11,526 nt of DNA from a virus (taxonomy: Duplodnaviria; Heunggongvirae; Uroviricota; Caudoviricetes): the IMG/VR virus record IMGVR_UViG_2537561670_000005; one strand, written 5' to 3'. Positions within the stretch are counted from its first letter, which is position 1. Every line of letters begins with the position of its first letter. The translations under genes and the position numbers were made by a program. Positions 1,320 through 10,152 of the stretch are shown here, in pieces. The notes below the pieces were generated by a model. That model had not been told where the DNA came from. It saw nothing but the letters and a program-made list of their open reading frames with translations, and made no database searches.

Positions 1320-1571
1320 GTGAAACATGAAACCGTTAAGATGCAAAAAAATATCAGATGCAATTGCGACGGGCTGCAACTGGCCCTGATGGTTCAGCAT
1401 GAATTTTGGTCAACCTACGATCCGGAGGACAGAACGACGGCCCCATCAAAAAAACAGGTAGTAGATTTTCTGGTATCCCGTGGCGCTTCCAGAAATCTGG
1501 CGGTAAGTATTGATAAGGTCGTACGTCCGGCATCTATGAAGATCGGAGGCAGGCCCAAAAAATGGCGGTAA
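1320..1571 (+). CDS. Hypothetical small protein (83 aa as drawn; start uncertain, GTG at 1320 or ATG at 1341)
   Basis: Open frame preceded by TATAAT at 1290-1295 and AAGG at 1314-1317, and followed by a strong intrinsic terminator. No recognisable family; basic C-terminus GGRPKKWR. Could equally be non-coding leader. Confidence 0.33.
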   Translation: MKHETVKMQKNIRCNCDGLQLALMVQHEFWSTYDPEDRTTAPSKKQVVDFLVSRGASRNLAVSIDKVVRPASMKIGGRPKKWR

Positions 1572-1944: not shown

Positions 1945-2092
1945 CGGGTATCACAGATATGACAAACACGAAAAAAGCGGCCCCGATATGGAGCCGCCTT
2001 TCTGAACAATTAACCCGCTGCGCCTTATGTGTATATGATCCCAAACATAAGCACGGGGATGATAGCCGCTATCAGGCTGGTGGGCAATGCAA

Positions 2093-2266
2093 TCAGTCTG
2101 GTTCAGTTCGTTGCCATACCTGCAATGAGCGCTTTTCCCTGTATTCTTTAAGGAATTGCTCAAGGGCAAAAGCACATGGCGCGAATCTTTCTGATTCATG
2201 CTCTATCTTTCTGCGCCGTCTTTTCCGTGCCGGTGATAATGTTTTGGTCAATTCTTTATCGGTCAT
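2093..2266 (-). CDS. Hypothetical small basic protein (57 aa from internal ATG; 62 aa from ATG at 2281)
   Basis: ORF 42 nt downstream of the RHH gene on the same strand; AGGA 10-13 nt upstream of the ATG at 2266; contains a KRRRRK stretch. Weak support, overlaps an antisense open frame. Confidence 0.25.
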   Translation of the reverse strand: MTDKELTKTLSPARKRRRRKIEHESERFAPCAFALEQFLKEYREKRSLQVWQRTEPD

Positions 2267-2323
2267 TGTGTTGTCCTGCATAGCAATGCGCCGTAATACC
2301 TTACACCACGGCGCTGATGGTGA

Positions 2324-2629
2324 TTACTCTGGTTCTTTGGTCTTGCGGCGCTGGAGTTCTTCACGTGCGACAGTGACGAGCTGCCCGATCTCCTCGGCGG
2401 CTTTGATTCCGAGTTTTTCCACCTGCGCCAGTGCATCGTGCGAAGAAATCAGGGGGTTTTCTCCGCTTCCTTCTGCCTGGCGGCGGGCGATTTCACCGCG
2501 CATGGCGGTTACTATGAATCCGGCGTTGCTTTCACCGTCCAGTTTTACGGATTCCATGCCTTCAATAACATCATGCGGGATCCGAGCTGTCAGTGATTGT
2601 GATTTTGCGTTTTTTGAACCTGTAGCCAT
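2324..2629 (-). CDS. Ribbon-helix-helix (Arc/CopG-like) DNA-binding protein, putative repressor of the early operon
   Basis: ATG at 2629 with GAGAGGA RBS 7 nt upstream (101 aa; the track start at 2644 is a TTG). N-terminal beta-strand/helix/helix pattern SLTARIPHDVIEGMESVKLDGESNAGFIVTAMRGEIARR. Divergent from the early operon with palindromes in between. Confidence 0.75.
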   Translation of the reverse strand: MATGSKNAKSQSLTARIPHDVIEGMESVKLDGESNAGFIVTAMRGEIARRQAEGSGENPLISSHDALAQVEKLGIKAAEEIGQLVTVAREELQRRKTKEPE

Positions 2630-2650
2630 CTGTAATCCTCTCAATGAAAG

Positions 2651-2745
2651 TGTAAGACAATATACACATAAAAAGTCTTACATAAAAGCATTGACATGTA
2701 AGCCACCTATAAATAAAGTTACTTACACCTTGTTAATGCAAGGTG
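2651..2745. promoter_or_regulatory. Divergent promoter/operator region between RHH regulator and early operon
   Basis: Inverted repeats TGTAAGAC (2651-2658) / GTCTTACA (2675-2682) and CACCTTG (2726-2732) / CAAGGTG (2739-2745); a further TGTAAG half-site at 2697; candidate rightward promoter TTGACA (2691-2696)-N17-TAAAGT (2714-2719). Confidence 0.5.
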
Positions 2746-2825
2746 CAGAAACGACGAAACCCCGCACTGTAGGAGCAGTAACGGGGCTTCTAACCACCAA
2801 CGATAGCAAGATTATCGAGGCAGCT

Positions 2826-3026
2826 ATGAGAAATTATACCATACACCCGCAAGGGCGGGACTCGTACAACCTGAATAAATACATCTGGCGTTTTATCGCC
2901 CTGAGCACGGCACAACCGCGCGTGATTACCATCGAGGCCACCAGCGAACAGGAAGCGCGTCAGCAATCTCCGGCTGGCTGCGTGATGGTATTTGCTGCCC
3001 GTATTCGTCAGGGGGTAGGCTTATGA
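2826..3026 (+). CDS. Small protein (66 aa), possibly Icd-like host cell-division inhibitor family
   Basis: ATG at 2826 with GAGG RBS at 2817-2820; stop overlaps the next start (ATGA). The motif pattern ...YIWRFIAL...SEQEARQ...VMVFAARIRQ resembles what I recall of Icd-like proteins found next to AlpA/primase in P4-like islands; family assignment unverified. Confidence 0.6.
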   Translation: MRNYTIHPQGRDSYNLNKYIWRFIALSTAQPRVITIEATSEQEARQQSPAGCVMVFAARIRQGVGL

Positions 3027-3253
3027 GCCAGGAAATCACACTACAACAGGCAGCAGAACGCGCCCACCAAATCGAAGTTATTTGCGCACTGGCAGAGGAT
3101 TACCCTGGCATGATGACCGACAGCGAATCAGGGGCAATCATCGGCTTACTTAAACGCCTTAGCGGTGAGGTCTGCGTATTCCTGAGCGATGAACAGGAAA
3201 GAAGAACGCTTATTTCTAACGAAAAAAAATGCGGAGGGGTACATGTGCAATAA
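3023..3253 (+). CDS. Hypothetical protein (76 aa), early operon
   Basis: ATG at 3023 overlapping the upstream stop (ATGA), G-rich RBS at 3011-3019; no recognisable family. Confidence 0.62.
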   Translation: MSQEITLQQAAERAHQIEVICALAEDYPGMMTDSESGAIIGLLKRLSGEVCVFLSDEQERRTLISNEKKCGGVHVQ

Positions 3254-3464
3254 AACCACACCGGACGCAGCAGCCGCCGCGCTCACTACGCTGATGCACG
3301 CGCTTATCGATATTGAATGCACTGCAGAGCTTGCGCAGGGAGAAGAACAGAAAGACCGGACACAGTTCGCCCTGGAATGTATCCGATACATCGCAACACG
3401 GTCGCTGAATGACGCTAAAAATATTCTTGTTGCTGATTGTGAAAATGGGGGGGGTTATGCGTGA
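3243..3464 (+). CDS. Hypothetical protein (73 aa), early operon
   Basis: ATG at 3243 with GGAGGGG RBS at 3233-3239 (the track ORF 3189..3464 trimmed to the RBS-supported start); stop overlaps the next start. Confidence 0.6.
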   Translation: MCNKTTPDAAAAALTTLMHALIDIECTAELAQGEEQKDRTQFALECIRYIATRSLNDAKNILVADCENGGGYA

Positions 3465-3678
3465 TGATCGTTTTAATTCCCTGAAACAGGAATTTTCCGG
3501 CGTTCCTGATGATGCGGCTGATGCGCTTTCGTCAATGCCAGAACTTATTAGAGCGGCTTTTTTCTTACTTTCCACGAGAGAATATAAATCAACGGGGCTT
3601 GATGTACTGAATATCGCCGCCGATTATGCTGATTTCGTGACAGAGGTTATTTTAAGAAAAACGACGGACGGGGATTAA
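3457..3678 (+). CDS. Hypothetical protein (73 aa), early operon
   Basis: ATG at 3457 preceded by a G8 run (RBS) and overlapping the upstream stop (ATGCGTGA); an alternative in-frame ATG at 3445 lacks an RBS. Confidence 0.58.
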   Translation: MRDDRFNSLKQEFSGVPDDAADALSSMPELIRAAFFLLSTREYKSTGLDVLNIAADYADFVTEVILRKTTDGD

Positions 3679-3679
3679 T

Positions 3680-3913
3680 ATGCGTGATATTTACCACGAA
3701 ACAATAGACCGCGCATTTCTTGCACTTTCTCACAGTGAAAACATGCTGGAAATATTGCGCATATGGCTTGAAACACTTGGCGACAATGAACGCGACAAAC
3801 AAAAATCAAGAATTGCCACGGCATTAATAACGCTTCTTGAGCCTGTAATAATGGAACTGCAAGAAATAGATCTATTGCACGATAGATATAAAGAACAGCA
3901 CACCGGAGAATAA
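3680..3913 (+). CDS. Hypothetical protein (77 aa), early operon
   Basis: ATG at 3680, 1 nt after the upstream stop, GGGGA RBS at 3669-3673; predicted helical, no recognisable family. Confidence 0.62.
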   Translation: MRDIYHETIDRAFLALSHSENMLEILRIWLETLGDNERDKQKSRIATALITLLEPVIMELQEIDLLHDRYKEQHTGE

Positions 3914-3918
3914 AAATA

Positions 3919-4218
3919 ATGAAACTTAAATATTCTGGCTTAACTGCCAGTGGCAACACTCACCCTAAATTTACGCGCGGCGATATTTACCGCGACCAGT
4001 ACGGCGGCACGGTAATGATTAAGGGCGTGGCGGGACGGTGCGTAACTTACCGCCGTGAAGGTTACGAATATGATTGCGTGATGCCTGTTTATCAGTTCCG
4101 GCGTGATTTTTCTCTGGTACAGACCGCGCCGCATAACGTGCCCACCAGCAACGCCAGGGCACGGGCAAACATCCAGAAGCTGAAAACCATGATTAACGGA
4201 TTCAGGGGTAAAAAATGA
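3919..4218 (+). CDS. Hypothetical protein (99 aa), early operon, immediately upstream of and coupled to primase
   Basis: ATG at 3919 with GGAGA RBS at 3905-3909; stop overlaps the primase start (ATGA at 4215-4218). Confidence 0.65.
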   Translation: MKLKYSGLTASGNTHPKFTRGDIYRDQYGGTVMIKGVAGRCVTYRREGYEYDCVMPVYQFRRDFSLVQTAPHNVPTSNARARANIQKLKTMINGFRGKK

Positions 4219-5969
4219 AACTGGCACCGAACGTAAAACAGCAGTCACGCGGCATAAAACACAAAGGAACAGAAGTCATTATTTTTGCGGGTAGTGATGC
4301 CTGGGCACACGCGAAACAATGGCAGGAACATGATGCGCGTATGGCCGGAGATAATGAGCCTCCTGTGTGGCTTGGGGAGCAGCAGTTATCAGAACTGGAT
4401 AAGCTGCAAATTGTGCCGGAAGGCAGAAAATCCGTGCGCATATTCAGGGCCGGATATCTTGCGCCAGTAATGATAAAGGCGATTGGTCAGAAGCTGGCGG
4501 CGGCAGGCGTACAGGATGCAAATTTTTACCCTGATGGTATGCACGGTCAGAAGGTGGAGAACTGGCGCGAATATCTGGCCCGTGAGCGCCAGAATCTTTC
4601 TGATGGTCTGGTCATTGAGCTTCCGGTAAAGCAAAAGGCGCAACTTTCGCAGATGGCGGACAGTGAGCGCGCGCAGCTGCTTGCCGATCGCTTTGATGGC
4701 GTTTGCGTACATCCTGAAAGTGAAATCGTTCACGTATGGCGCGGCGGGGTATGGTGTCCGGTCAGCACAATGGAACTTAGCCGCGAAATGGTGGCGATCT
4801 ATTCAGAGCACAGGGCCACTTTCAGCAAGCGCGTAATCAATAACGCCGTGGAAGCGTTAAAAGTTATTGCCGAACCAATGGGCGAGCCGTCCGGCGATTT
4901 GCTGCCGTTCGCCAATGGTGCGCTTGACCTGAAAACGGGGGAATTTTCCCCGCACACGCCGGAGAACTGGATCACCACGCACAACGGCATTGAGTACACG
5001 CCACCAGCACCAGGGGAGAACATCCGCGATAACGCGCCAAACTTTCATAAATGGCTTGAGCACGCAGCCGGAAAAGACCCGCGCAAGATGATGCGTATAT
5101 GTGCCGCGCTGTACATGATTATGGCGAACCGGTACGACTGGCAGATGTTTATTGAGGCCACCGGAGACGGCGGGAGCGGTAAAAGTACATTCACACACAT
5201 AGCCAGCCTTCTGGCAGGGAAACAAAACACGGTAAGCGCTGAAATGACATCGCTTGATGATGCTGGTGGGCGTGCGCAGGTTGTCGGGAGTCGTCTTATC
5301 GTCCTGGCAGACCAGCCGAAATATACAGGCGAAGGAACGGGCATCAAGAAAATCACGGGCGGCGACCCCGTGGAAATTAACCCGAAATATGAAAAGCGTT
5401 TTACGGCGGTAATCAGGGCGGTGGTGCTGGCAACCAATAACAATCCGATGATATTCACCGAACGGGCCGGAGGTGTGGCACGTCGTCGGGTGATATTCCG
5501 GTTCGATAACATCGTAAGCGAGGCAGAAAAAGACAGGGAGCTACCGGAAAAGATCGCGGCTGAAATCCCTGTCATTATCCGCCGCTTGCTGGCGAACTTT
5601 GCCGACCCTGAAAAGGCACGGGCTTTACTCATTGAACAGCGTGACGGTGATGAAGCACTGGCAATAAAGCAACAGACGGATCCGGTTATTGAGTTTTGCC
5701 AGTTCCTGAATTTTCTGGAGGAAGCACGCGGCCTGATGATGGGCGGCGGTGGCGATTCAGTGAAGTACACGACCAGAAACAGCCTTTACCGCGTCTATCT
5801 GGCGTTTATGGCGTACGCAGGCAGGAGCAAACCGCTAAACGTAAATGACTTTGGCAAGGCTATGAAGCCAGCCGCGAAAGTTTACGGACATGAATATATT
5901 ACGCGGAAAGTTAAAGGAGTAACGCAGACTAACGCAATAACAACAGACGATTGCGACGCGTTTTTATAA
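4215..5969 (+). CDS. P4-family phage/plasmid primase-helicase (D5_N-like region plus SF3-type NTPase), replication initiator
   Basis: 584-aa ORF; Walker A GDGGSGKST (nt ~5163-5189), Walker B-like RLIVLADQP, and a D5-N-like stretch (FANGALDLKTGEFSPHTPENWITTHNGIEY). Followed directly by an iteron array, as for PICI pri-rep/ori. Confidence 0.93.
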   Translation: MKLAPNVKQQSRGIKHKGTEVIIFAGSDAWAHAKQWQEHDARMAGDNEPPVWLGEQQLSELDKLQIVPEGRKSVRIFRAGYLAPVMIKAIGQKLAAAGVQDANFYPDGMHGQKVENWREYLARERQNLSDGLVIELPVKQKAQLSQMADSERAQLLADRFDGVCVHPESEIVHVWRGGVWCPVSTMELSREMVAIYSEHRATFSKRVINNAVEALKVIAEPMGEPSGDLLPFANGALDLKTGEFSPHTPENWITTHNGIEYTPPAPGENIRDNAPNFHKWLEHAAGKDPRKMMRICAALYMIMANRYDWQMFIEATGDGGSGKSTFTHIASLLAGKQNTVSAEMTSLDDAGGRAQVVGSRLIVLADQPKYTGEGTGIKKITGGDPVEINPKYEKRFTAVIRAVVLATNNNPMIFTERAGGVARRRVIFRFDNIVSEAEKDRELPEKIAAEIPVIIRRLLANFADPEKARALLIEQRDGDEALAIKQQTDPVIEFCQFLNFLEEARGLMMGGGGDSVKYTTRNSLYRVYLAFMAYAGRSKPLNVNDFGKAMKPAAKVYGHEYITRKVKGVTQTNAITTDDCDAFL

Positions 5970-5982
5970 TTTGTTGCAATGG

Positions 5983-6208
5983 CTGTCTACCCTGTCTACC
6001 TGAGTAAAGAAAAATACATTTAATTCAGTGCATTAAGTTAGGTAGATAGCCTTTTTTTACTGTCTACCCACTATCTACCCTCTCTACCTGATTTTACCTG
6101 AATCAGACAGGGAGGTAGACACGGGGTAGATAGTGGATAAAAGCACTCTACCCCGCTGAAAGCCGCGCCATTACTGGCATGAGGGCCACTAAGGTAGATA
6201 GGTAGACA
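5983..6208. repeat. Iteron-type replication origin (about 12 copies of YCTACC / GGTAGA in both orientations flanking an AT-rich stretch)
   Basis: Tandem CTGTCTACC at 5983-5991 and 5992-6000; CTGTCTACCC 6060-6069; CTATCTACCC 6071-6080; TCTCTACC 6081-6088; CTCTACCCC 6146-6154; inverted GGTAGATAG 6041-6049, GGTAGACA 6114-6121, GGTAGATAG 6125-6133, GGTAGATAGGTAGACA 6193-6208; AT-rich 6001-6040. Confidence 0.75.
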
Positions 6209-7369: not shown

Positions 7370-7576
7370 ATGGCTGAAGAGAAAAAAGGCGGTGTTTCGG
7401 TGTACATAAGCCCCGACATCGTGAAGGCGCTCAAGGAACGCCACCAGCAGAACGTAAAAGCAGGCATTGCGGCAGGACTTGATCCGCTGGCGATGGTTGA
7501 GCCGTCAACAGGCTGGCAGGTACGCTCCTATTTACGCGCGGCGCTGGGCATAAATCAGACTCATGGGGGTGAATAA
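7370..7576 (+). CDS. Small protein (68 aa), possibly ribbon-helix-helix-like; first gene of the capsid operon
   Basis: ATG at 7370 with GAGGA RBS at 7355-7359; stop overlaps the capsid gene start (TAATG). GGVSVYISPDIVKALKERHQQ resembles a CopG/Arc-type strand-helix motif; assignment tentative. Confidence 0.55.
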   Translation: MAEEKKGGVSVYISPDIVKALKERHQQNVKAGIAAGLDPLAMVEPSTGWQVRSYLRAALGINQTHGGE

Positions 7577-8631
7577 TGGCAGTCAAAGCAATGGCACTTA
7601 ACACACACCAGCTTTTCGCGTACCTGAATCGCGAGGATATTGCGGAATTTAAATTTAGTCCGCTGTTTACCGCGCTGTTTTTCCCGAACGTGGCGACATT
7701 CAACACGCAAAACATCATGCTGGATACCCTGGACATTGAAGAAGTCACCATGTCGGCGTTTTGTTCGCCTATGGTGGGTAGCCAGGTTCAGCGCGATAAA
7801 GGGTACGAAACCAGCACGATTAAACCTGGCTACATGAAGCCAAAGCACGAAATCGATCCAACGAAAACCATCATGCGCATGGCTGGAGAAGATCCGGCAC
7901 AGCTTAACGACCCTACCTATCGCCGTATGCGCCTGATTACTGGCAATATGCGCCGCCAGATAAACGCCATAAAAGCGCGCGTGGAATGGCTGGCGGTAAA
8001 TGCGGTAACGACCGGAAAAAACATCATTGAGGGCGAAGGCATAGAGCGCTATGAAATCGACTGGAAGATACCGGAAAAAAACATCATAGAGCAGGCCGAC
8101 GGGAAAAAATGGTCAGAGCAGGACAAAGAAACCCACGATCCAATCTATGATATCGAACTATACGCCGATCAGGCTGGTTGCCCCGCAAACGTCATGATTA
8201 TGGGCGTTGAGGTATGGCGAACGTTACGCAGCTTTAAAAAATTCCGTGAGCTGTACGATCTTTCCCGTGGTTCAGAGTCCGCCGCAGAGCTGGCCTGTAA
8301 AAACCTGGGCGAAGTGGTGAGCTTTAAAGGCTATCTGGGCGATATTGCCCTTATCGTCTATTCCGGCAAATACACTGACAGCGACGGCACAGAAAAATAT
8401 TTCCTTGATCCTGATTTGCTGGTCCTGGGCAACACCAACAACAAAGGGCTGGTGGCCTATGGTGCGATTATGGATCAGGAAGCGGTAAGAACAGGCGCAA
8501 CGCAAAACATGTACTACCCGAAAAACTGGATTGAGGACGGCGATCCGGCGATTGAGTACGTGCAGACGCACAGCGCACCGCAGCCGGTTCCGGCAGATAT
8601 TCGCAAATTTGTTACCGTCAAAATTGCTTAA
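7576..8631 (+). CDS. Major capsid protein, lambda gpE-like
   Basis: 351-aa ORF alignable along its length to recalled lambda gpE (341 aa): FKFSPLF..LFF, KPGYMKPKHE, DP.YRR.R.I..NMR, W...DK.T.DP..DIE.YA, FRSFK, SYKG..GD.A..VYSG.Y, VLGNT...GL..YG, YPKNW...GDPA.E....SAP. Confidence 0.93.
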   Translation: MAVKAMALNTHQLFAYLNREDIAEFKFSPLFTALFFPNVATFNTQNIMLDTLDIEEVTMSAFCSPMVGSQVQRDKGYETSTIKPGYMKPKHEIDPTKTIMRMAGEDPAQLNDPTYRRMRLITGNMRRQINAIKARVEWLAVNAVTTGKNIIEGEGIERYEIDWKIPEKNIIEQADGKKWSEQDKETHDPIYDIELYADQAGCPANVMIMGVEVWRTLRSFKKFRELYDLSRGSESAAELACKNLGEVVSFKGYLGDIALIVYSGKYTDSDGTEKYFLDPDLLVLGNTNNKGLVAYGAIMDQEAVRTGATQNMYYPKNWIEDGDPAIEYVQTHSAPQPVPADIRKFVTVKIA

Positions 8632-8642
8632 CGGGGGATTCT

Positions 8643-8978
8643 ATGGACACTCCATACATTGAGTTATTTGCAGGCAGTCAGCAGGTATCCACGACGCTGG
8701 TACATTTTGCCGCTGATGCTGGCGTTATTCAGGAATTTACCCCGCTGATGCTGGCGGACAATGGCGAGTTTAAGCCGTGGGATGGTCAGGAATCTGGCAA
8801 GGCTGTTTATCTGACTTCGTACCTCGTGGACACGTCAAAGCAGAAATCAGCACAGTGTTACAAGACGGGGATATTCAATATTGCCGCCGTTAACTGGCCT
8901 GAGAGCGTCGACACCGATGCGAAAAAATGCGCCGCCTTTGCGGGTTCTGGCGTATCCGTTCAGCCGCTGGCCCGATAA
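8643..8978 (+). CDS. Head decoration protein, lambda gpD-like
   Basis: 111-aa ORF, GGGGGA RBS; aligns with recalled lambda gpD (110 aa): TPLMLD/TPLMLA, WDG, YKSG.F/YKTGIF, WPE, KK..AFAG..(I/V)S. Confidence 0.82.
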   Translation: MDTPYIELFAGSQQVSTTLVHFAADAGVIQEFTPLMLADNGEFKPWDGQESGKAVYLTSYLVDTSKQKSAQCYKTGIFNIAAVNWPESVDTDAKKCAAFAGSGVSVQPLAR

Positions 8979-9609: not shown

Positions 9610-10152
9610 ATGAAATCGCACCTGATGAACAAAAAAAACATGGCGAAAAGCTGCCGTGTAAGTGCGACAGCGTTCGACAAGTGGGGAGTGACTCCCGTTG
9701 AACGTAAAGGCCGTGAGGCGTTTTACGATGTTGCCAGCGTGATAGACAATAGGGTTAACAATGCAATTAGCCAGCTTACAAACGACAAAGGCGATATTGA
9801 TGATGATGAACTCTTACGAGTCAGGATCAGATTACTGACAGCACAGGCGGAGGCGCAGGAACTTAAAAACGAGCGCGATCGCGGTGACGTGATTGATACT
9901 GAGTTTTGCCTGTACGCGCTTTCAAAGCTGGCGAGTCAGATTTCATCAATCATGGACAGCCTCCCGCTTACTATGCAAAGGAGCTTCCCACAGATTACCC
10001 CCGCCATGCTGGATAGGCTTAAAAGGGAAGTGGTTAAAGCCTGTAATGCCAGTGCCAGAGTTGCCGACAACCTCCCACAGATACTGGCTGATTACTTGAA
10101 AGAAACAACCGGAAACGTACCGGAAAAGTTGCTACAGAAGAAAGGCGAGTAA
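9610..10152 (+). CDS. Terminase small subunit, lambda Nu1-like (start uncertain: 9610, 9625 or 9640)
   Basis: 180-aa ORF; strong similarity to recalled lambda Nu1: LTAQAEAQELKNERDRGDVIDTEFCLYALSKLASQISSIMDSLPLTMQRSFP vs RLTRAQADAQELKNARDSAEVVETAFCTFVLSRIAGEIASILDGLPLSVQRRFP; the N-terminus MNKKNMAK... (from 9625) parallels MEVNKKQLA..., and FYDVASVI parallels LYDSAAVI. Weak RBS at all candidate starts. Confidence 0.9.
   Translation: MKSHLMNKKNMAKSCRVSATAFDKWGVTPVERKGREAFYDVASVIDNRVNNAISQLTNDKGDIDDDELLRVRIRLLTAQAEAQELKNERDRGDVIDTEFCLYALSKLASQISSIMDSLPLTMQRSFPQITPAMLDRLKREVVKACNASARVADNLPQILADYLKETTGNVPEKLLQKKGE

Follow-up and report, generated by a model that had tools for sequence, protein, structure and literature searches.

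The Early Operon of an EcCICFT073-Type Satellite of Escherichia coli: Icd- and RgdR-Family Bookends, a Variable Gene Slot, and a Predicted Cis-Antisense RNA

Related Systems

The phage-inducible chromosomal islands (PICIs) of Gram-negative bacteria have their model in EcCICFT073 (Fillol-Salom et al. 2018, PMC6092414; 2019, PMC6739421), for which, and not for the related island of E. coli Nissle 1917 dealt with below, helper-phage induction, replication, and high-frequency transfer have been demonstrated (PMC6092414). Its operon is activated by AlpA, the overexpression of which leads to uncontrolled replication and loss of viability, and pri-rep is the only gene named as required for its replication (PMC6092414); helper interference was ascribed to a different gene, Rpp (PMC6739421). 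Here, we describe the corresponding operon in a DNA stretch of 11,526 nt (IMG/VR record IMGVR_UViG_2537561670_000005; the whole stretch analysed is hereafter called the window), where six small genes, ORF1–ORF6, occupy positions 2826–4218 of the plus strand just ahead of the gene of a P4-family primase. The operon is the early operon of an EcCICFT073-type PICI, i.e., of an element type that is already known, and it is ordinary for this satellite class. Its first and last small genes are homologs of Icd of phage P1 and of RgdR of E. coli O157, respectively, the genes between them are optional, and an 83-nt RNA predicted on the opposite strand covers the start of ORF1.

Both bookend families have been studied in other contexts. 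According to a study of 2025, P1 Icd binds FtsZ and is toxic when expressed, its residues 12–51 being sufficient for the activity (PMC11897509). RgdR (ECs1581, encoded in O-island 51 of O157) activates LEE1 and type III secretion and represses motility; its activity was tied to the RGD motif, and the purified protein binds DNA non-specifically (Flockhart et al. 2012, PMC3378721; RgdR is also treated in the review PMC10877973). In the same study of 2012, c1493 of strain CFT073 was deleted and expressed, and the effects of its expression were RgdR-like (PMC3378721). RgdR is encoded by all E. coli PICIs analysed in the 2018 PICI paper (PMC6092414).

Operon Architecture and the Bookend Genes

The six small genes and the primase gene make up one chain of seven coupled genes on the plus strand. 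The chain begins with ORF1 (2826–3026; 66 aa, pI 10.0), continues with ORF2 (3023–3253; 76 aa, pI 4.8), ORF3 (3243–3464; 73 aa, pI 4.5), ORF4 (3457–3678; 73 aa, pI 4.4), ORF5 (3680–3913; 77 aa, pI 5.0), and ORF6 (3919–4218; 99 aa, pI 10.2), and ends with the P4-family primase/helicase (4215–5969; 584 aa; D5_N, DUF5906, Pox_D5, and TIGR01613). Two start codons were moved by one base, to the ATG at 3243 (not 3244) for ORF3 and to the ATG at 3457 for ORF4. Stops and starts overlap within ATGA at the ORF1/ORF2 and ORF6/primase junctions, by 11 nt between ORF2 and ORF3, and within ATGCGTGA between ORF3 and ORF4; the remaining neighbors are separated by a gap of 1 nt (ORF4/ORF5) or 5 nt (ORF5/ORF6). 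A G-rich Shine–Dalgarno sequence precedes each of the seven starts (GAGG, GGGGG, GGAGGGG, G8, GGGG, GGAG, and GGGG, in this order), and a search for terminator-like sites on the plus strand within 2826–4218 returned none. The NCBI annotation pipeline PGAP calls the identical six coding sequences in Nissle 1917 and CFT073, all six ORFs match PHROG families, and pairwise ratios of non-synonymous to synonymous substitution rates (dN/dS) against 13 other loci are below 1 for each ORF, mostly 0.15–0.5. A sequence-only reading of the window had proposed six translationally coupled small ORFs with individual G-rich ribosome-binding sites, cotranscribed with the replication gene; these observations bear it out in all these respects and show, in addition, that the ORFs are kept across related loci under purifying selection.

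The comparisons described below rest mainly on 107 unique related loci, which were collected from IMG/VR by matching a 17-mer of the ORF1 leader. The locus diversity comes from E. coli genomes and IMG/VR; a scan of GTDB with ORF6 yielded at least two loci.

ORF1, found in 104 of these loci, is on sequence grounds a true homolog of P1 Icd spanning its FtsZ-inhibiting core. It matches the Icd-like domain NF033153 with 69.9 bits (cut-off 25) over residues 19–62; P1 Icd itself scores 52.6 bits over residues 12–51, and BLASTP aligns residues 18–60 of ORF1 with residues 11–50 of P1 Icd at 35% identity (E = 1e-6). The formerly tentative Icd-like label has hence become a firm one. A PDB sequence search with ORF1 gave no match. 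The position of the gene agrees with its family: ORF1 is the first in its operon, is ATGA-coupled to the next gene, and has G-rich final codons, mirroring P1, where icd and ant1 overlap in ATGA and icd also ends in G-rich codons. In the P1 record, icd is annotated as “apparently required for expression of ant”. By analogy with P1 Icd, ORF1 would be expected to target FtsZ.

ORF6 belongs to the RgdR family. It matches PF13973 (DUF4222) with 82.1 bits (cut-off 27) over residues 16–68, is 91% identical to c1493 of CFT073 and 78% identical to the O157 orthologue, which carries the name RgdR in RefSeq, and, at 99 aa, is a basic protein with R20-G21-D22. The statement that the five genes after ORF1 lack an assigned family is thus wrong for ORF6 and remains right for ORF2–ORF5, for which no characterized family has been found. 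Present in 105 of the 107 loci, ORF6 always lies directly upstream of the replication gene, whether the latter codes for a primase, a RepA-type helicase, or a DUF927 protein in the given island. The RGD motif is not conserved in the family: RGD, PGD, CGD, NGD, SGD, and IGD all occur among 66 relatives, and only G21 and D22 are invariant.

A structure model of ORF6 features a Tudor/SH3-like barrel and a C-terminal helix; a PDB sequence search with ORF6 gave no match. The model resembles the RID of CarD and the C-terminal domain of UvrD/PcrA at 10–17% sequence identity, a level of likeness at which many unrelated SH3/Tudor proteins score equally. Most likely, ORF6 acts in a general way on transcription or on DNA, and perhaps it binds RNA polymerase in the manner of CarD and the UvrD C-terminal domain. 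If so, a small Tudor-like and possibly polymerase-binding protein would offer a cause for the global effects of RgdR on host genes, and it would be made together with the replication protein by every island of this family.

The Variable Slot between the Bookends

ORF1 and ORF6 are near-universal bookends; the slot that they enclose is variable, and ORF2–ORF5 are its optional cargo. Of the 107 loci, 14 have ORF2, 56 have ORF3, 43 have ORF4, and 42 have ORF5; the complete six-gene layout occurs in eight, and the commonest architecture, “16P”, which lacks ORF2–ORF5, in 33. ORF1 and ORF6 lie 402 to 1,911 nt apart, and the repertoire of the slot comprises about eight families of small genes. Since most of the related islands do without ORF2–ORF5, these genes are not needed for replication.

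The four cargo proteins are short (73–77 aa) and acidic (pI 4.4–5.0), and none of them matched Pfam, NCBIfam, or PADLOC. The PHROG matches are phrog_1478 for ORF2, phrog_5146 for ORF3, phrog_24341 for ORF4, and phrog_2196 for ORF5. Relatives of ORF2 with 38–41% identity reside in early-left operons of Fels-1 and Klebsiella prophages. A tblastn search of 50,697 phage genomes gave no match for ORF3, ORF4, or ORF5, and in the same search ORF1 and ORF6 matched just two small satellite-sized records. The family of ORF5 is very narrow: an exhaustive HMMER search of 1.84 billion proteins found nine representatives, with no fusions and no known domains. The cargo genes are not tandem paralogues, all hhalign probabilities between them being below 2%. 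Defense genes were looked for among the six ORFs and rejected: neither these nor the two ORFs on the minus strand matched a PADLOC protein model at E ≤ 1.

ORF3 and ORF4 are closely linked. A single family, phrog_2512 (154 positions), corresponds to ORF3 in its first half and to ORF4 in its second half, and the junction of the two genes contains a poly-G tract (G8, 3447–3454, +) doubling as the Shine–Dalgarno sequence of ORF4. Over 25 unique ORF3/ORF4 junctions, this tract is seven, eight, nine, or ten G residues long; the two genes form a fusion at 11 of the junctions, are split in the manner of the window at nine, and are in the third frame at five. The length of the tract also alters the spacing ahead of the ORF4 start. 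The fusion in relatives suggests that ORF3 and ORF4 act together. The tract, with its splitting and fusing of the two genes, was overlooked in the sequence-only reading, as was the antisense RNA discussed below; the tract could be hypermutable, of the contingency type, or its variation could in part reflect homopolymer errors of sequencing or assembly. AlphaFold2 models ORF4 as an all-helical protein with three to four helices (predicted local distance difference test score 75). A T-run at 3550–3556 in the same gene is the site of another one-base change, which gives several database relatives an alternative tail (..AAFSYFPRENINQRGLMY); these frameshift variants are likely an artefact in part.

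What the cargo does is a matter for conjecture. ORF2–ORF5 could be small effectors directed against the helper phage or host defenses (derepression, interference, or anti-defense), as their place in a variable slot with a small set of interchangeable families, their acidic character and small size, and their restriction to Escherichia/Shigella satellites would suggest. The protein identity between alleles drops to 35–55% in these genes as compared with about 90% in their neighbors, and the relatives of ORF2 are found in prophage operons where host-modulating accessory genes are common. The position has a precedent, too: the P4 derepressor epsilon is encoded upstream of the P4 primase. At the same time, homology to a characterized effector was found neither with Pfam, NCBIfam, and PADLOC nor in the fold search with ORF4 (the PDB sequence search covered ORF1 and ORF6 only), and dN/dS stays below 1 throughout, these pairwise estimates bearing no sign of diversifying selection. 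Moreover, helper interference and induction are accounted for in EcCICFT073 by Rpp and AlpA, respectively (PMC6739421, PMC6092414). An effector role appears less likely than not.

A Predicted Antisense RNA over the ORF1 Start

The strand opposite to the ORF1 start encodes a predicted cis-antisense RNA of 83 nt (2745–2827, −) folding into two hairpins. Its promoter would lie inside ORF1: a perfect extended −10 element, TGGTATAAT, reads from 2841 to 2833 (2833–2841, −) within codons 3–6, and of 111 unique related sequences, about 105 contain TGGTATGAT or TGGTATAAT. Stem-loop 1 lies over the start codon and the Shine–Dalgarno sequence of ORF1, both of which are part of the stretch 2811–2828 covered by the RNA; stem-loop 2 (2757–2789, −) leads into a U-rich tail (2756→2745). 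In silico, the element hence combines a promoter, a strand-specific conserved structure, a hairpin with a U-rich tail, and an overlap with a translation start. RNAs of about 70–80 nt that cover the ribosome-binding site of the target and end at a hairpin terminator are known from the sar/ant pair of phage P22 and from SymR/symE of E. coli.

Several lines of evidence indicate that the structure is real and belongs to the minus strand. The RNA of the window (2827→2745) has a minimum free energy of −34.5 kcal/mol (z = −5.0). In all 71 unique variants, the minus-strand fold is more stable than the plus-strand one (on average, −37.1 vs. −22.7 kcal/mol), since many of the pairs are G-U. Compensatory changes were recorded in 7 of the 11 pairs of the hairpin 2757–2789, a result matched by none of 500 shuffles; when the alignment is taken in the minus orientation, 95.3% of its cells pair and nine pairs are changed on both sides, which again none of 500 shuffles reached. 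The ORF1 leader and first codons are far more conserved than the proteins, and the hairpin and the C-rich tail are retained in the second icd allele, the protein of which is only about 50% identical. A covariance model trained on 31 variants found one site per island, exclusively on the minus strand, including four loci with the diverged allele that were outside the training set (40–49 bits); it found no match in P1, Fels-1, or the Klebsiella phage. The weaker second copies of the motif (37–56 bits) seen in three islands (L003, 1732–1814, −; L026, 10475–10551; L077, 6323–6404) may be remnants of another icd leader.

The RNA matches no described family: Rfam contained no counterpart, nor were C4 or isrK found in the whole window at E ≤ 1 or in 2640–2960 at E ≤ 10, and on this ground a C4, CI, or isrK immunity RNA of the kind known in P1 and P4 was rejected. 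The hairpin 2757–2789 was also considered as a plus-strand terminator and rejected: in that orientation, it has no U-tract behind it and folds far less stably. Nothing relevant was found in the literature on a small RNA in CP-933C, OI-51, or PICIs.

By analogy with sar/ant of P22, SymR/symE, and C4/icd–ant of P1, the RNA would block the translation of ORF1, whereupon the coupled chain would silence the operon; that is, it is probably a cis-antisense gate on the whole operon. Two other interpretations of the element deserve attention. The first is that ORF1 and the antisense RNA constitute a module resembling type I toxin–antitoxin systems, with the geometry of SymE/SymR or hok/sok, the main role of which would be to stabilize the island or to curb leaky toxicity instead of regulating the operon as a whole. 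It is consistent with the toxicity of P1 Icd (PMC11897509), with a cis-encoded RNA of about 80 nt over the Shine–Dalgarno sequence and the start of the gene of a small toxic-protein homolog, and with the retention of the pair as a unit in both icd alleles, even in islands devoid of the YlcI/YnfO-family gene (L006, L011). A block on ORF1 should, however, spread, because ORF1 is ATGA-chained to six downstream genes, and icd–ant of P1, equal in layout, is a regulatory device. A module of this kind is less likely than not.

The second interpretation sees in the minus-strand structure an insulator or attenuator between the convergent and divergent promoters, acting as DNA or RNA, or the 5′ leader of a longer transcript running into the YlcI/YnfO-family gene. 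The U-tail is imperfect in the allele of the window, and further downstream, this strand carries the repressor gene. Switches of the 186/P2 type have promoters that stand face to face and interfere with each other's transcription. This interpretation is unlikely, given the separate −10-like TATATT (2664→2659) next to the repressor gene, the retention of the RNA element in islands without the YlcI/YnfO-family gene, and the strong U-tails of several alleles, such as GGGGCUUUGCUUUUUU. The antisense gate is the preferred interpretation of the element.

Promoter, Operators, and a Putative Repressor

The sequence-only reading had also placed a divergent promoter region upstream of the operon, and such a region is present. 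The operon promoter (2691–2719, +) consists of the −35 element TTGACA (2691–2696), a 17-nt spacer, and the −10 element TAAAGT (2714–2719), and it faces a minus-strand gene of the YlcI/YnfO family (2324–2629; 101 aa with the PGAP start; NF041551, 72.4 bits), which is divergent from the operon and codes for a putative repressor, perhaps with a ribbon–helix–helix fold; the TATATT mentioned above is a possible −10 of its own minus-strand promoter. The promoter is embedded in a putative operator region (2651–2727) with four TGTAAG half-sites arranged in two inverted repeats, one at 2651–2682 (TGTAAGAC at 2651–2658 with GTCTTACA at 2675–2682) and the other at 2697–2727 (TGTAAGCC at 2697–2704 with ACTTACA at 2721–2727).

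The operator repeats are wholly different among islands, as a comparison of the window with L002–L013 revealed: TGTAAG here is replaced by GTGGGCCACAC in CFT073 and by GTGTT[CT]AACAC in others. From locus to locus, the motif covaries with the YlcI/YnfO allele, and this co-change fits specific repressor–operator pairs with predicted binding. Judging by these sequences, the sets of operators and YlcI/YnfO alleles look like immunity types.

The stretch 2645–2745 is hypervariable from allele to allele, with indels of lengths not divisible by three, which marks it as non-coding. This speaks against the 355-codon open frame 1959–3026 (+), in frame with ORF1, as a gene, a model countered also by the conservation of ATG 2826 and its Shine–Dalgarno sequence in every locus. 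The frame runs antisense to the YlcI/YnfO-family gene and across the promoter region, and PGAP annotates its first part (1959–2438) as a partial “Icd-like” pseudogene. As coding conservation is missing from the promoter part, the frame probably joins a relic of a larger Bro-zone gene to a chance open frame.

Proposed Mode of Operation

On balance, the findings are best accounted for by a PICI early operon with Icd and RgdR bookends, a cargo slot, and an antisense RNA gate, an account that we consider probable. The single promoter at 2691–2719, situated amid allele-specific operators and opposite to the YlcI/YnfO-type repressor gene, would give rise to one mRNA with seven genes, each linked to the next by stop and start codons that overlap or abut. 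An antisense RNA of 83 nt, which would be made constitutively from a start inside ORF1, most likely keeps ORF1 untranslated, and, via coupling and polarity, the operon including the primase would stay silent until sense transcription is strongly raised. Upon induction of the island, ORF1 would then most likely block FtsZ, ORF3 and ORF4 would function as a pair, and the translation of ORF6 would be tied to that of whatever replication gene the island possesses. That ORF2–ORF5 and RgdR are instead accessory replication factors (loaders, agents of origin remodeling, or regulators of primase expression) is the least probable of the alternatives considered here: they are co-translated with the replication gene, and RgdR, a non-specific DNA binder (PMC3378721), invariably comes next before the replication initiator of any type, but ORF2–ORF5 are missing from most of the related islands with the same primase (“16P” making up 33 of 107), and the EcCICFT073 work named pri-rep alone as required (PMC6092414).

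A number of points weigh against the account. The antisense RNA is a prediction from the sequence and its folding. Its U-tail is just moderate in the allele of the window (UUUCGUCGUUUCU), though strong in other alleles, including that of O157 OI-51. Its −10 element sits within a gene and may owe some of its conservation to constraint on the protein or to recent common ancestry, and stem-loop 1 does not vary in the main data set, as the 17-mer used for retrieval lies inside it. As for the proteins, the published RgdR phenotypes come from plasmid expression, and the reported DNA binding is non-specific (PMC3378721); the ORF4 model is of moderate confidence, and the fold search with it returned no match at E < 3; the AlpA-like protein of the window is weak against Pfam Phage_AlpA (17.6 bits at a cut-off of 21).

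More broadly, it may be that E. coli PICIs of this family are silenced, primase included, by a conserved cis-antisense small RNA acting through the Icd-like gene, coupling, and polarity; we offer this generalization tentatively, rating its chances slightly below even. Should it hold, the antisense RNA would represent a layer of repression, a matter called unclear for Gram-negative islands in the 2018 PICI paper (PMC6092414), and, the RNA and its target being nearly identical among islands that share a cell, cross-immunity between such islands would follow. What turns the early operon on and off is also of practical interest: the probiotic E. coli Nissle 1917 serves as a chassis for engineered therapeutics, and delivery vehicles are being developed from EcCICFT073-type islands. 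Overall, the Icd and RgdR assignments correct the record on two of the six genes, and the defined cargo slot shows where satellite-specific functions may be sought; the most useful lead is the 83-nt antisense RNA as a candidate for the cause of island silence.

The Island and Its Other Features

Over the 2.1 kb around the operon, the window matches E. coli Nissle 1917, ATCC 25922, and related strains at 100% identity, and parts of the same segment are present in 1,812 of 5,426 complete E. coli genomes. In Nissle 1917, the island of about 11 kb has a tRNA-Pro gene (adjoining yejM) on one side and narP on the other, and it carries genes for an integrase, an HTH/AlpA-like protein, the minus-strand YlcI/YnfO-family protein, the six small proteins, the P4-type primase, SSB, homologs of lambda capsid E/D, and a Nu1-like small terminase (TerS). 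This is the layout of a PICI, i.e., an element in the range of about 10–15 kb with its own attachment site and with int, alpA-type, and pri-rep genes following each other in this sequence, and without lysis or tail genes.

The Nu1-like small terminase gene and the homologs of lambda capsid E and decoration protein D lie at 9610–10152 and 7576–8978 of the window, in which no portal, protease, or large terminase gene was seen. About 90 nt past the primase stop, there is a long near-perfect palindrome with repeated CTACC-type motifs (6056–6137), which also attracts spurious mir-135 matches in Rfam on both strands. It is probably the replication origin of the island; the EcCICFT073 papers locate the origin downstream of pri. 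Two more small ORFs, 2093–2281 (−) and 1320–1571 (+), are situated between the AlpA-like and the repressor genes; they matched no family, PGAP having a hypothetical protein in the region of 1320–1571.

Comparison with Known Systems

By sequence, the window is a sister of the studied satellite EcCICFT073 with another integrase and another attachment site, as the six genes come in the same order, the primase is nearly identical, and three proteins are identical. In figures, the primases share 99.7% identity, the ORF2, ORF3, and ORF4 proteins are the same, and those of ORF1, ORF5, and ORF6 are 90–94% identical; the general layout (integrase, AlpA-type gene, YlcI/YnfO-family gene, operon, SSB, capsid E/D homologs) is shared as well. 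EcCICFT073 differs in its own integrase and an attachment site near phoQ, compared with tRNA-Pro in the window, in the AlpA allele and the operator repeats, and in a YlcI/YnfO protein of 59 aa as against 101 aa; it also has a PerC gene and other late genes where the window has the Nu1-like TerS.

RgdR and c1493 resemble ORF6 in length (99 aa), basic character, DUF4222, the RGD motif at residues 20–22, and the place just before the replication gene. Nissle lacks the LEE (locus of enterocyte effacement) island, so the published target of RgdR is absent there.

The immI region of P1 (C4 RNA, icd, ant1/ant2, kilA, repL) is similar in having as its first gene an Icd-family member that is ATGA-coupled and ends in G-rich codons, an RNA acting at the icd translation start (in the window, a predicted one), and a replication gene further downstream. 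At the same time, C4 originates from the same strand and acts by pairing of short loop sequences, whereas the RNA of the window is cis-encoded and fully complementary, and ant and kilA are unrelated to the downstream genes of the window. In size, in a promoter immediately within or beside the target gene, in covering the ribosome-binding site, and in ending at a hairpin, the predicted RNA is closest to those of P22 sar/ant and SymR/symE; it has no sequence relation to them, and its target in the window heads a coupled satellite operon of seven genes.

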